DNA of 64,000 nucleotides from positions 186,001-250,000 of the forward strand of contig NW_021836130.1 in assembly GCF_006345805.1 (NCBI RefSeq), read 5' to 3'. Each line of letters starts with the position of its first letter. Position 1 is the stretch's first letter. The stretch is from Octopus sinensis. Lineage: Eukaryota. The notes below the pieces were generated by a model that was not told the DNA's origin, searched no databases, and saw nothing but the letters and a program-made list of their open reading frames with translations. Positions 2,404 through 59,667 of the stretch are shown here, piece by piece. Made by a program: the position numbers and the translations under genes.

Positions 2404-3249
2404 TTAAATTAAAGAATATTTAATCCAAAAATCATCTTTAATTATATCACAATTAAGTTCCACAATATTATCCCCATCTTTAACCAAGACAGTCCCCTTC
2501 CTATACAAGAGTGGCACATCGTTGTAGTTAATCCCAAAATCCGTGAACAAAATCTCATTCTTATCCCTGGCCAATGTCCCCTACAACTTAAAAATGTCCC
2601 CCCACTCGAAGGACCTCTTCACTCTCCCTTCTACTTTTCCCGCCTTGTTGAACCAAGGCCCAGAAGGCAGTGTTATATAAATTATTAATGTGGCCTAACA
2701 GTCAGTATATAACACAACAGTCGGCCTGCCTCCAGGAAAGTAGTCCCGCACATTGGCACACGTGGGCAGGCAGATCAGGCGGACAGTCGAAGACGGGGGG
2801 ACGAAGGAGGGTCGCCACCCCGAAATATTCAGGCCAGTGGAAAGACGTAGGCCGAACTGAGTGCACTTACCAATAGAAATAATTTTACTATTTTTTAATA
2901 TTATTTTACTATTTTTTAAATAAATAAATATATAATAAAAAACCATTTTCTTCGCTGGAAAAGCTGGCAATTTCGGTTGAAGAGAAAACTGAATTCGTCG
3001 CTCTGTCCATAGGCAAGGACAATATCTTTGAAGAGGTCGAAGAGGGAGGCTGAGGCACGTGACAATAGGGCGAGGGCACGTGGGTCGTTGGGCTTCTGGA
3101 AGTTGTGGTCTTCGGAAAATCTGTTTTTTATATGTTTTTGAGGACCTGTGGAAGGACTTGCCGTCTATTCGGGCTACTATGTAGGTGTTGTATAGACATT
3201 TGGGATCTTCTTCGAATTTTTTAACATATTCATATTTGGAACCAGCCAT
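2404..3249 (-). CDS. THG1L: tRNA-His guanylyltransferase Thg1
   Basis: [27 protein letters not shown]-terminus; [10 protein letters not shown] in an alternative frame; C-terminal [17 protein letters not shown]. Split by micro-introns. Confidence 0.9.
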
Positions 3250-3308
3250 GCACCACAAGAACTTGAAAATTTAAATTTTGAAAATGTAATAAAATATTTA
3301 AATTTGTT
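3250..3308. promoter_or_regulatory. Candidate ultra-short bidirectional promoter between THG1L and MTRFR
   Basis: Head-to-head start codons only 59 bp apart; AT-rich core flanked by TTCTTGTGG (minus strand) and TTGTT (plus strand). Confidence 0.6.
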
Positions 3309-54823: not shown

Positions 54824-57800
54824 ATGAATAAATTGAACGAGAATTCAAAAGTTAAGGTGGCCATTCGGTAAATAAATTTCAATCACCACCAGTGTCCGTC
54901 CTCTCACCGGGAGTGAGTTATGTGAGGAATATCCCTACTACACTAAAGTCCTACCTGAGACCTCCCAAATATTGTTGGGTGGCAATAAATATTTCACTTT
55001 CGACCACGTTTTTGGGGTCAAATCCAACCAATCTCAAATCTATTCCTCAATCGCCCACAATTTAGTGGAAGGGTATTTCCCTATCTAATTGTAGGTCCTT
55101 CGAAGGCTACAATGCCACAATCCTCGCATATGGACAGGTTTTAACTCCTTTCTACTTTAGACCGGTTCTGGGAAGACTTTCTCGATGGGCTCGTCATTCA
55201 ACGTGGATTTGAAGGAAGACCAAGTGGGGATAATTCCTCGTGCTCTTCTCATTTATTTTCGGGGATTAAAGCACGTTCTGAGTCAGAATTCAAACTGTCC
55301 ATCCAATTTGTCGAGGTTTGTCAGGTCAGTTCAAATTGGCAGATTTACAACGAGGAAATCAGAGATTTGTTGGACATTGGCACAAAAGTAGTCCAAAATG
55401 GTCATATCGTAGAATAAAAGTCAAATAAAAATCCACGAGGATTCCCAGGGAGGAATATATTTGGTGGGGGCAACCATGAAGGTGGTGACTGACTTGGAAC
55501 AAGTGACAAACCAACTCAGAATGGGTTGTGATCAGAGAACGACAGGAAGTACTAACATGAACAACCAATCTTCTCGTTCTCATGCAATATTTTCTATTTT
55601 AATTAACCAAGAGAAAGTCATTGAGTTGGAAAAAGTTGATTAATTAGTTTGATTGGATCAGGGTGAGTCACACAAGGAGATTCTAACATCTAAATTTAAT
55701 TTTGTGGATCTTGCTGGGTCAGAACGACTAAAAAGGACTGGTGCGACCGGAGAGAGGGCAAAGGAGGGGATTTCTATAAATTGTGGACTGGTTTGGTGTG
55801 TTTGGAAGACTATAGTTCGCATTGGGTAACGTAATCTCAGCTTTGGCTGATAAAATGAAGACAGGGACATTTGTGCCTTATAGGACATCAAAGCTGACTC
55901 GAATATTGCAGGATTCGCTTGGGGGGAATAGTCGGACTGTCATGTTGGCGTGTGTTTCCCCCTCTGTCCGTGACTGTATTGAGACAACTGGGACAGTCGA
56001 ATATGCAAATAGAGCAAAGAATATAGAAAATAAGGCAACAGTCAACCAAGATCTCAATAGTCGGGAAATTATGACTCTTCGGACACAAATATTGAAATTG
56101 CAGAAGGAGTTGGCCAGTTGTGGGTATTTGGACTTGTGGTGGACTGGTAGAATTCGGATGGGATGAGACTGAGACTGATTGACCTAGAAATGGAGAATTC
56201 GCAGTTGCACCAGCAAATAAGTGAACAGAAGCTAGAAATTAGTCGTCATATTCCCGTTTTGAAGAGATTCAGATCAATTCAGATAAAAATAGGCTGGAAG
56301 AATATTTGGCAGGTGAGTTGTGTGATTTGAGTGTAGTGTGTGGTGGGGAGGACATGGTTGTTCGGATATTATAAAAGAACTAATAGAAGAGAACTCGTCA
56401 CTCAAGTAATCTCATTTGAGTAATGTGAAGGAATAAAATATTGATTTGGAGTCACTCAAACATGATGACAAAACACCCGACACTGATGTGAGTGGTCTAA
56501 ATGAATAATAGATTAATCAACTCATCCAAAACAGTGCGCAGACAAAGAGAGGAATCTACAAGAATGTGTTCTGATACGTAAATAATAAGCCAATTAGTTA
56601 ATTTATTAGACAAAGTGAGGATATGGAGAGCAGAGAGGAAGATAACACGTTGATTGAGAGAGATGGGACTGTGGACGGCATTTCTGATTCCAGTCAAATG
56701 GTCAGTCTGGCACAGGAGATTGAGTCGAAAGAAAGGCTGATTCGAGTGATTGAAACCTCCCGTATTCGCTGCAAAGAGATGGAGACTTGTTACGAGACTA
56801 AAATAGGAGCAATGCTCAGCAAAATAAAGTCCTTGGAGCAAGAACGTGATTTGATATCAAGACGAAACAGCAGTAAATCAACCTCTTTAATACTCAATAG
56901 ACAAGAAGGATGTCCGTTCTAACGAGAGGGTGGAGGAATGTGAGAAGAAGATCGCAGAATTAAATAGTTGTGTTCAGAAATACAAGTCATTACTGCGAGA
57001 GAAGACACAGCAACTCAAAATCACTGCCACTTCTGAGCGGGACCTTCAAATGCTGAAGAAAGAATTGGCGGAGATGAAGAAATTAAAGGTGTATTGTGAA
57101 ATATATTTAAGGTCAATATGATGAAGAAAATGAGAGAGGAAGCCACTCGGAGTCGACAGAGGGATGTGGGTCATACCAAAGAAGTCAATCAACTCGAAAG
57201 GAAGTTTCAGCGAACATTGTCTGATAACAGAAGTCTAAAAATTGGGTTGGAGCAGAAAGACTCGTTGCTAAAGAGGAAGCAGGCCGATGTTGGAGTGTGG
57301 TGGATTAACTAATTAGATTGAGAGTCTGAGAAGGAAGAATAGGCTAATCAGTGTGGAGGCGACTAAATCGAGTATGACTGTGTTATTTATGCTTAGATAG
57401 GAGAAAGATATTGAAGGAATTGGTCGACAAGAACATAAAAACAGTGGAGGATTGGATTTCCAACATGAGTGGACATCAAGTGACAATCAACAATATAGAA
57501 AAGGACATGTTCAGTTGGGTTAAGGTAGTTTGAGAACATTCTAGTCCTTCTAGAAACAAAATTCATATAAAAACGGCTTGTATCATTAAGGGAGAAGAGA
57601 TCACGTCTCCCTGCTCATAAAACAGTTGGTTATGAATTATGACGAGAAGGATAAGGCTGATTTGCTGGATACAAAGATATCCTCGGTGGAGTCTACGATT
57701 GAGTTTATAAGCAGTCACGTGAAGGATTGTCAGTCAAAGATAACACATTTCATGTCCAAAAAGGTGGAGTGAGTGAATTATGAGTATAGAATGAATTTGG

Positions 57801-59667
57801 GTCTGCCGACGAGTTGTCCTCCAGTCTATGTGATTACTTACAGAATTCTGAGGATATCAAGCCGATTCTGGTCAATATCCTCGAGAACATGATCGAGAAG
57901 GCTGATTGTTGTAGACTAATAGACAGATTGTGCAGTTGGAGAAGACAATTGTGGATAATAAGGCACTTCGTGCGAGAATTTCCAAATTGGACGCACGGAG
58001 TAGTTTCAGGGCGGAATTGTATGGCAATCTGATGGACTTGGTGCCCAACGACGAAGACAAGTTGAATATTGACTTGAGTTTCCTCGGAGATGACGTGTCT
58101 GATCCAGATTTCGACGATGAAGAAGGTTGAGTGACTAATATTCCTCCCAGAGACCGAGGATGAATTTGACGGAGACATTCCTTCCACAACCAATCCTAAT
58201 GAACTGTATTACCTTATGATTCACACTGCAGGACAGTTCAAGTTGGTGTCGTCCAAGATGTTGGTATTTTGGTTTAGTTTTAGGAAGTTATTCCAAGAAA
58301 ACACAGACTGACTGCCATGCCCTCGATGATTGACACTTTGTCCAGGTGGTTGATCTGTTGTTGCATGTTTAGTACTATTGCTACGTCGTCGAGTGGAAGT
58401 GTTGTGCCTGTGCCTCATCACATGTTCATCAAGTCGGCCAGTCACACTTTCTCTATCTCAGATGTACAGAAAATAAAGGACGCGATGGAGAGGTAGTGTC
58501 CATACCTCAAATTTAGTTCTCGGTTTTCCCACTTTTCTGAAGGAAAGAGCGGACCCAAGTCCTTATTCCTGGAGAATGTGTTCGAAATAAGAGGGCCACG
58601 TGGGGGAATTGTGTCAATGAGTGCCAGTCAGGATAGACTTGTGAGTTCTAGCAAGGGTTACTCTCAATAACTGATTCCAGACTGTTCGAATAATTTGTGG
58701 GATTTGGAGGCGTTTTGTGAAGTGCAGACTTACAGTGGATACCCCACCCCACGTCACGAGGAATATCAACCTTTCCCCGAACTGAGGATGGTGGTCATGA
58801 CGGCTTCGTACTGCTCAATGGTGTGGGACATTCGAGAGCCTGCTAAAAAGAAATTTTCTATTTTTTGGTTATTTTTACATTTTGAGTGTCAGTTCTGATG
58901 GAAGTGTATTCAGGAATGCACAAAGTTTTAATGAAATGCCCAACGCTTGTTCGACGCCGTTGGTTGTGTGCTTATCTGTGGATAGACTAAGTCTGTATTC
59001 TTCTCATTCCAATGTTGTGAATGTCTGGGATTTGTCCAGGTTTGCACATTGGGTCATTATTTTAGAATGGAAGCACGTCCCAATACATTTATGTGCGACT
59101 CTTTGATTGTATTTTTGCTTGAGGTGGTCATTGAGGATGTTCTTTATCTCATTGCTGCTTTGAAAGATCGAACTCTTTGTGTATATTTTGGGAGAATAAC
59201 TTGATAAGGTGTTTAATGTGAAAGGGGACACTTTTGGGATGTTCACCCCAGATGTGTTGTTCGCACTCCCCACAATGATAGAATTGTCCATCTATATGTG
59301 ATTGGGAGTTTTCTATTCTCAGTAAGTCATGACGGGTGTGTGTGTAAATGGGATGTGAGGGATTCGTTAAGAATAGTCAATGTGATGTCTATGGTTATAT
59401 TTTTAGAGGAATGTTCTGGAACATTCTGGAAGGAGTATTCAGTGTGTCCACGATATTCCGTTTTGGAGAATGCGTTTTGTTAGTGGGTGTCGGAATAGTG
59501 TGGTCAAAGTTTGGAATTCGGAGTCGATGGAGTGCAATGACTCGTTTAAAATTAGTGACAAGGGATTAATTGTTTTGCTGTAAATATGATGCTCTTTTTT
59601 ATCGGATTGGAGTTTGAGTTTTATTTAATATTTTAGTTTCATTTCTGCATGGAAGAACAGGATGTAG
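54824..59667 (+). CDS. KIF21: Kinesin-4 family KIF21-like protein (motor, coiled coil, C-terminal WD40-like repeats)
   Basis: [76 protein letters not shown]; long coiled coil; C-terminal WD-like motifs. Many micro-introns; end approximate. Confidence 0.85.

Follow-up and report, generated by a model that had tools for sequence, protein, structure and literature searches.

Strand asymmetry along genes has been described in several groups of eukaryotes. The closest known pattern is the opposite 5′/3′ GC skew of fungi. In most unicellular fungi, the coding strand favours C over G where genes begin and G over C where they end, with a ramp-flat-ramp profile that is significant in 33% of Candida albicans genes and 14% of Saccharomyces cerevisiae genes; the pattern was called absent from higher eukaryotes (McLean & Tirosh 2011, PMC3315797). 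Its cause has been open since that description. At plant and fungal transcription starts, a C-over-G skew has been ascribed to G-to-C transversion, significant C excess being found in none of 10 animals (Fujimori et al. 2005, PMC555766), while PMC3315797 cites other work for a C bias at invertebrate starts. In mammalian gene bodies, G exceeds C and T exceeds A on the coding strand, in relation to germ-line expression (10.1101/2025.11.24.690122). The window considered here is a stretch of 64,000 nucleotides filed under Octopus sinensis (NCBI RefSeq GCF_006345805.1, contig NW_021836130.1; G000:C12601:186001-250000 of the 2.72-Gb host assembly), which we read as DNA of a dicyemid, a parasite of octopus, co-assembled with its host. 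The original prediction, made from the letters of the window, proposed that housekeeping genes undergo a single strand-skew switch from C/A-rich to G/T-rich. The flip exists, but it consists of two independent ramps of about 400 bp, one per gene end, with a near-neutral middle. The 5′-C/3′-G flip itself was known from fungi; what is new is its occurrence in an animal, an AT skew that also flips, and ramps that can be separated.

Nine genes of the window turn from C/A-rich to G/T-rich on the coding strand, at silent sites and, where both gene ends have introns, in introns. Since the pattern equals its own reverse complement, it reads C-left/G-right on the plus strand whichever strand carries the gene, and so also for the five minus-strand genes (THG1L, CANT1, STT3, TACC and PSMC2). 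Most of the window recurs on the same contig (C12601), the second copy being about 98-99% identical. In the following list, the proportions of guanine plus thymine (G+T) refer to the first and then the last stretch of up to 400 bp of each gene.

2404..3252, minus strand: THG1L-like gene; strong C/A to G/T flip (silent sites 29/84 to 53/92, introns 28/74 to 26/37); Pfam Thg1 on the allelic copy.
4647..5660, minus strand: CANT1-like apyrase gene with internal assembly frameshifts; strong flip (silent sites 23/80 to 79/108); Pfam Apyrase on the allelic copy.
7329..11420, plus strand: coiled-coil gene with many micro-introns; weak or 3′-only lean; uncertain boundaries and no Pfam match.
17420..19640, minus strand: LIPE-like hydrolase gene, incomplete model; leans weakly the same way (allelic copy, z 1.1); Pfam Abhydrolase_3.
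25049..27429, minus strand: STT3 gene; flip (silent sites 31/106 to 64/92), cumulative G+T being lowest about 330 bp away from the ATG; Pfam STT3.
29966..30895, plus strand: single-exon SoxB gene with HMG-box relatives; a control, flip absent (silent sites 54/106 to 56/117).
31597..32230, plus strand: VBP1 (prefoldin) gene; flip (silent sites 16/56 to 40/70); Pfam Prefoldin.
34880..36194, plus strand: tyrosine-kinase gene (ACK of the original prediction); strong flip (silent sites 32/100 to 52/84, introns 4/20 to 33/46), with a C-rich intron at 34936-34961 and a G/T-rich one at 35785-35809; Pfam PK_Tyr_Ser-Thr.
36428..38066, plus strand: WD40 gene (WDR33 of the original prediction); strongest flip of the window (silent sites 28/98 to 78/106, introns 11/37 to 30/38); Pfam WD40.
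39246..40275, minus strand: gene formerly called TACC, start uncertain, no Pfam match; flip (silent sites 17/42 to 58/92, introns 12/21 to 41/58).
43955..47487, minus strand: reverse-transcriptase retroelement open reading frames (ORFs); a control, silent sites without flip (55/110 to 56/111); Pfam RVT_1.
52978..54481, minus strand: PSMC2-like AAA ATPase gene; flip (silent sites 34/81 to 68/101, introns 28/85 to 16/21); Pfam AAA; its 27-nt intron at 53232 is spliced out in a public contig.
54824..59660, plus strand: kinesin gene (KIF21 of the original prediction), head-to-head with PSMC2; short C/A zone and long G/T body (silent sites 41/95 to 45/65, introns 23/52 to 32/54); Pfam Kinesin; its 25-nt intron at 55790 is spliced out in a public contig.

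The hand counts on 60-nt lines from which the flip had been proposed are exact in 10 cases out of 10, and the two ACK introns quoted with them start at 34936 and 35785. VBP1, TACC, PSMC2 and KIF21, judged similar by eye, flip in composition profiles and silent-site counts as well, and intron G+T rises from start to end in THG1L, ACK, WDR33, PSMC2, KIF21 and TACC, as had been claimed. Pfam backs the proposed name or family for THG1L, CANT1, STT3, VBP1, the kinase, the WD40 gene, the AAA ATPase, the kinesin and the hydrolase, while the name TACC is unconfirmed. Among the genes said to lack a flip, SoxB is indeed flat, but LIPE and the coiled-coil gene lean weakly the same way.

The dicyemid origin of the window is supported by several features of the assembly, which mixes chromosome-size contigs bearing long-intron genes with many small contigs bearing compact genes. 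On the small contigs, introns have a median length of 25 nt and 92.6% of them are shorter than 30 nt (self-trained gene finder, 1.24 Mb). The best match of an innexin exon from a sister contig is Dicyema koshidai innexin1, at 72% identity, the next matches reaching only 34-37% once two octopus-labelled records on sub-megabase contigs are set aside. A SoxB relative filed under octopus maps at 100% to another sub-megabase contig. Published dicyemid genomes have a median intron of 27 bp (PMC6543705), a GC content of 36.7% and a heterozygosity of 1.24% (PMC6736024). These published values agree with the contigs studied here. We read the window as dicyemid DNA, the hallmarks found being micro-introns, a GC content of about 35-37%, dicyemid-like proteins and a cephalopod host. 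A single species is probably involved. The presence of two parasite species, considered as a cause of strong and weak contigs, was rejected: RPB1 has a single parasite copy, proteasome alpha subunits are all distinct paralogs, and repeats are common to the contigs.

The window region occurs five times in the assembly (C12601 at 51-108 kb and at 187-250 kb, C9748, C9587 and C9323). The two C12601 copies are haplotype-like, about 1% apart and joined in one contig; C9748, for which a single stretch was compared, is near the first of them. Dicyemid DNA is spread over many unplaced contigs, C12601, C8698, C10215, C8223, C9002, C7512 and C9499 among many others. Parasite genes in the host assembly are filed under the host name in public databases, as are their proteins: P0003 matches C8698 at 100%, and P0122 and P0123 look alike.

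The flip was followed genome-wide in 1.82 Mb from 25 contigs, where 351 gene models were reduced to 175 after removal of duplicate, repeat-like, edge and intron-poor models and of 11 split ones. These models are ab initio, some being split, fused or mis-started, and the coding and intron models of the gene finder are position-independent. Of the 175 models, 155 gain G+T from start to end; z exceeds 2 in 79 models and lies below -2 in 2. A first set, scored at four-fold and intron sites over the first versus last 500 bp, gave 125 rises among 144 non-repeat models (52 at z>2, 2 at z<-2). On held-out contigs, 40 of 48 models rise (14 at z>2, none at z<-2), 6 models on two contigs duplicating earlier ones being excluded. 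Retroelement ORF models are flat (20/36 rise). The mean is positive in 25/25 contigs and both strands behave alike. The skew at silent and intron sites is therefore tied to gene ends across the genome, as the original prediction supposed. Single-nucleotide polymorphisms (SNPs) between two copies of the window region number 89/6771 at codon position 3, 32/6776 at position 1 and 25/6762 at position 2; such densities, 1.3% at third versus 0.4-0.5% at first and second positions, are expected of real reading frames. A non-repeat Pfam match on the longest exon was found for 86 of 167 representative models.

Strength varies between contigs. The window's contig is among the strongest, with a mean rise of 0.18 versus 0.05-0.06 on C8907, C10215 and C6303. 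Ramp strength differs by contig (Kruskal-Wallis p 0.017 for the 5′ ramp and 0.0005 for the 3′ ramp), as seen in these three contigs versus C12601, C9002 and C9499; the average gene has no 3′ ramp on C10215 and no 5′ ramp on C8907. Ramp strength is predicted neither by GC content nor by the length of the gene or of the spacer. By the all-site shuffle test of McLean & Tirosh, 39/175 models are significant (22%), which places the dicyemid between S. cerevisiae and C. albicans (PMC3315797); the description of the flip as unusually strong holds at silent sites of the window genes but not in this genome-wide comparison.

An additive fit separates the two ramps. Residual G+T in successive 100-bp bins from the ATG is -0.10, -0.10, -0.08, -0.07, -0.02 and 0; in bins counted back from the stop codon it is +0.06, +0.07, +0.055, +0.045 and +0.02. 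Zero is thus reached by +400 to +500 from the ATG and about 500 bp ahead of the stop. In long genes the middle is near neutral, or mildly G/T-rich in core genes, while short genes resemble a single switch because their two ramps meet. Selecting genes by their introns brings out the ramps at four-fold sites, and selecting by four-fold sites brings them out in introns; the two site classes correlate (rho 0.38, n=113). Intron cores, excluding splice signals, have G at 0.12 and C at 0.17 in the first 350 bp, against 0.21 and 0.12 in the last 400 bp. In core genes, GC skew at start, middle and end is -0.25, +0.06 and +0.16 at four-fold sites and -0.29, +0.28 and +0.39 in introns, and four-fold (T-A)/(T+A) moves from -0.12 to +0.28. 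The C/A zone begins sharply, about 25 bp past the ATG. Sequence upstream is on the whole neutral, with a slight G excess ahead of strong genes (+0.10 ± 0.04). The G/T excess extends about 150-200 bp beyond the stop and then decays to zero with no C/A reversal, intergenic flanks being neutral past 200-300 bp. Two-sided, long-range skew independent of gene direction and borders, of the replication-origin type, was not found. Mirror skew across gene borders is absent past 3′ ends and weak upstream of 5′ ends, a test that the young age of flank DNA limits. No short word anchors the switch among 136 4-mers and 1908 6-mers, the largest steps being 0.01-0.06 and symmetric in both tails. CACGTG, which topped the hexamer list of the window, was rejected as an anchor, with a step of z=0.7 and equal frequency in weak and strong genes. 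As a separate observation, T makes up about 52% of the first 50 bp past the stop codon in strong genes.

Compared with fungi, the dicyemid pattern has the same C-biased 5′ and G-biased 3′ coding strand, the same intermediate middle and ramp-flat-ramp outline, a presence at four-fold sites, a shifted amino-acid use and an occurrence in many but not all genes (PMC3315797). The original prediction noted that milder C-skew near starts is known in plants and fungi, but overlooked that the full flip had already been described in fungi. Three differences are apparent relative to the fungal account in PMC3315797. The dicyemid AT skew flips (A>T, then T>A), whereas that of fungi is flat and positive, the reason for which McLean & Tirosh rejected deamination; the dicyemid data fit transitions. 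The C-rich zone, in positions relative to the ATG, lies inside the dicyemid gene with none in the promoter, whereas fungal C bias reaches into the promoter or 5′ UTR and usually peaks there. In dicyemids the shift at silent and intron sites is far larger than at codon positions 1-2, while the fungal shifts are similar. The C excess near the gene start is shared with the plant and fungal start skew of PMC555766; in contrast to that start-centred peak, the dicyemid zone covers about 400 bp inside the gene, has an excess of A as well and comes with a G/T ramp at the 3′ end. The dicyemid 3′ ramp and the mild mid-gene excess of core genes have the sign of the mammalian asymmetry. The mammalian skew is a few-percent plateau with a G-rich start, whereas the dicyemid start is opposite in sign and the end peaks at the intron GC skew of core genes given above. 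A literature search, whose coverage excluded most subscription papers, returned no report of gene-scale skew in dicyemids or of a full flip in an animal, and the word skew does not occur in the main text of the two dicyemid genome papers (PMC6543705, PMC6736024).

The bases involved can be identified at two-fold sites. In 43 intron-picked genes, T/(C+T) is 0.45, 0.55 and 0.67 at start, middle and end, and G/(A+G) is 0.32, 0.50 and 0.57. This shift equals that at four-fold sites and is present in every next-base context, so that causes limited to transversions, to CpG or to TpC do not fit, and the pattern points to transitions (C/T, A/G). Read on the opposite strand, the 3′ values (0.43, 0.33) nearly match the 5′ ones (0.45, 0.32). 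Selection on base composition would also shift two-fold sites; the result narrows the mutational options and leaves mutation unproven. Codon positions 1 and 2 shift much less than silent sites, introns shift as much, and protein ends change: from start to end, K, N, T, Q, H and P fall from 0.285 to 0.258 while V, G, F, C and W rise from 0.185 to 0.201. N-termini are enriched in Q, P, T, I and N and depleted in V, C and R. CpG is about two-fold depleted in intron cores of all zones.

The ramps vary between genes beyond noise (SD, standard deviation, 0.083 and 0.086 vs about 0.046) and are uncorrelated with each other (rho -0.07, n=174), with the exception of 22 tandem-upstream genes (rho -0.52). 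Between the 3′ ramp and the gene middle there is a correlation (rho 0.38, n=83). The 3′ ramp also depends on gene class: by our Pfam-based labels, it is +0.104 in core housekeeping genes (n=47) and +0.007 in cilia, signalling and membrane genes (n=17; p=0.0006), with +0.077 (n=13) vs -0.074 (n=4) among the few held-out genes. The 5′ ramp occurs in all gene classes. The restriction to housekeeping genes initially proposed therefore applies mainly to the 3′ ramp. The ramp is lost at convergent 3′ ends, where the 3′ end of a neighbour lies no more than 500 bp away (-0.028 at 13 such ends vs +0.064 at 126 isolated ends), an effect with a regression t of -3.0 when class is a covariate and a within-contig permutation p of 0.03. 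In tandem pairs (n=22), the 5′ strength of the downstream gene does not predict the 3′ signal of the upstream gene (rho +0.10); in divergent pairs (n=7), rho is 0.61 and not significant. Facing a promoter adds no strength to a 3′ end (0.055, vs 0.064 for isolated ends). The 5′ ramp is stronger behind AT-rich upstream DNA (rho 0.33).

These observations agree with a process whose limits and orientation are those of the transcription unit. We lean, by a little, towards ramps produced by transcription-coupled, strand-biased transitions (C to T, A to G), acting on the coding strand near the gene end and on the template strand past the promoter. The cause would then be mutation or repair and not selection, a transiently single-stranded strand being deaminated. 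At the 3′ end, the strand displaced by a slowing or terminating polymerase would be exposed in germ-line or agamete cells, through sense R-loops; at the 5′ end, antisense RNA, antisense R-loops or a paused complex may expose the other strand, which is the weakest link of the scheme. Transcription-linked strand-asymmetric mutation is established in human genes (10.1101/2025.11.24.690122), and at Drosophila R-loop centres GC skew passes from negative to positive and AT skew from positive to negative, with antisense R-loops at starts (PMC9254486). The tie to transcription made in the original prediction is supported for the 3′ ramp, which follows gene direction, continues past the stop, is strongest in core housekeeping genes and fades at convergent ends. 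A search for uracil glycosylase gave no match, host included, which makes the search insensitive and gives no sign of loss of the enzyme. Several results weigh against transcription-coupled transitions. The 5′ ramp is class-independent (putatively somatic genes -0.094, core genes -0.103, p=0.47), something that a model of germ-line transcription would not lead one to expect, and SoxB has no 5′ ramp. A beta-tubulin gene with high silent-site GC (L058:5759-7204, G000:C10215) is reversed, with a G-rich start and a C-rich end (z -3.2). Haplotype SNPs, few and unpolarised (173 at silent and intron sites of 21 genes, 70 of them from one gene copy that is possibly a paralog), show no zone effect; C/T changes number 51 and A/G 25 at four-fold and intron sites, 19 and 13 at two-fold sites. 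Several contig pairs taken as haplotypes corresponded in only a few genes. Class labels on the first contigs were assigned after the per-gene values had been seen. The convergent test comprises 7 gene pairs only, its difference being near zero in 2/5 contigs, and convergent ends also lack an AT-rich spacer, which a model of border events could exploit.

An explanation of mixed origin, which we regard as unlikely but serious, would keep transcription-coupled mutation for the 3′ ramp and attribute the 5′ ramp to selection on nascent RNA or promoter-proximal DNA, the target being low structure, slow early elongation or avoidance of G/U-rich, termination-like sequence. The class-independence of the 5′ ramp, its lack of correlation with the 3′ ramp, its sharp start at the ATG and its greater strength behind AT-rich DNA agree with this, and McLean & Tirosh offered an adaptive model based on CTP (cytidine triphosphate) and collision (PMC3315797). 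Yet the ramp spans 400 bp, is present in intron cores that are spliced out, appears equally in all sequence contexts and has a mirror image of like size and length in the 3′ ramp, while the link to upstream AT content may merely reflect wrong start calls in some models. Selection on both ramps, or their origin as by-products of codon-usage ramps and protein-end composition, seems very unlikely: protein ends do shift and the highly biased beta-tubulin gene is reversed, but introns move like silent sites, codon positions 1 and 2 move much less, and the signal passes the stop codon and depends on the orientation of the neighbour. That the flip is an artefact of selected lines, of the gene finder or of long-read errors is hardly credible. 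The imperfect ab initio models and the strength of the window's own contig would favour such an origin, but the gene finder is position-independent, the held-out contigs, both strands and all 25 contigs agree, SNP densities follow codon position as in real frames, and two predicted introns are seen spliced out; SNP densities, genome-wide results and held-out results together refute it as a general explanation.

A single process acting at gene borders is rather improbable. Double-strand breaks, meiotic or programmed, or short-range origins in AT-rich border spacers would produce both ramps if resection or fork asymmetry bared one strand inward from each border. The polarity would match 5′-to-3′ resection directed inward, the retained strand being deaminated; the ramps resemble mirror images, a slight G excess lies just upstream of strong genes, the signal is absent at convergent ends with tiny spacers, and dicyemids are reported to rearrange somatic DNA (PMC6543705). 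Strand-asymmetric mutation flanks human meiotic break hotspots, a short-range, mirror-image asymmetry that arises from single-stranded DNA (Hinch et al. 2023, PMC7615360); the hotspot signal is two-sided over 1-2 kb, whereas the dicyemid ramps are one-sided and bounded by the transcription unit. No C/A-rich flank follows the 3′ ends, the tandem correlation is weakly positive where a negative one is predicted, promoter-facing ends are not stronger, the 3′ ramp depends on gene class, somatic rearrangements would not be inherited, and replication skews normally span many kilobases (PMC2817419). The absence of the C/A mirror and of tandem coupling thus tells against both promoter-linked replication initiation and breakage or resection at gene borders, the two other causes named in the original prediction. 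Gene-sized DNA circles were also rejected as a cause, as the circles described in PMC6543705 carry only mitochondrial domains and do not explain nuclear genes. A more speculative proposal, to which we give little credence, is that, in every active dicyemid gene, one mirror-symmetric process bares a strand inward from the start and from the end alike; resection at the ends of gene-sized units would be an example, as would sense and antisense R-loops that converge in the agamete lineage. If it were true, the ramps would be the heritable scar of gene-bounded DNA processing in an animal known for DNA amplification and elimination.

Whatever the cause, the dicyemid genome makes the choice between mutation and selection testable, with a 25-nt intron roughly per 165 coding bases and hence dense near-neutral sites all along the gene. 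The bias in the ramps also alters protein ends and may matter for the placement of dicyemids, a long-branch phylum.

Further features of the window region were noted. Directly behind THG1L lies a gene with a ubiquitin-conjugating fold (UQ_con, window 1880-2340, minus strand), a partial model without flip, and head-to-head with THG1L is an RF-1-domain gene (window 3282-3800, plus strand). Short duplications at 3755-3830, 3875-3905 and 4590-4640 have a stretch in common with the DNA that flanks CANT1 on its 3′ side. This duplication area holds a GAAnnTTCnnGAA-type repeat, possibly akin to heat-shock elements, that is also found within ACK (35537) and KIF21 (59409). The 3′ part of VBP1 and the DNA downstream of it (31970-32420) have a near-identical copy at 49990-50440, within a G-rich block of short duplicated pieces (49000-50800). 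Between WDR33 and TACC, window 38100-38700 holds an imperfect tandem-like repeat with units of about 55-60 bp, present only in the copies of this region. A tandem array of about 80-bp units (L001:760-3440) forms the start of contig C12601.

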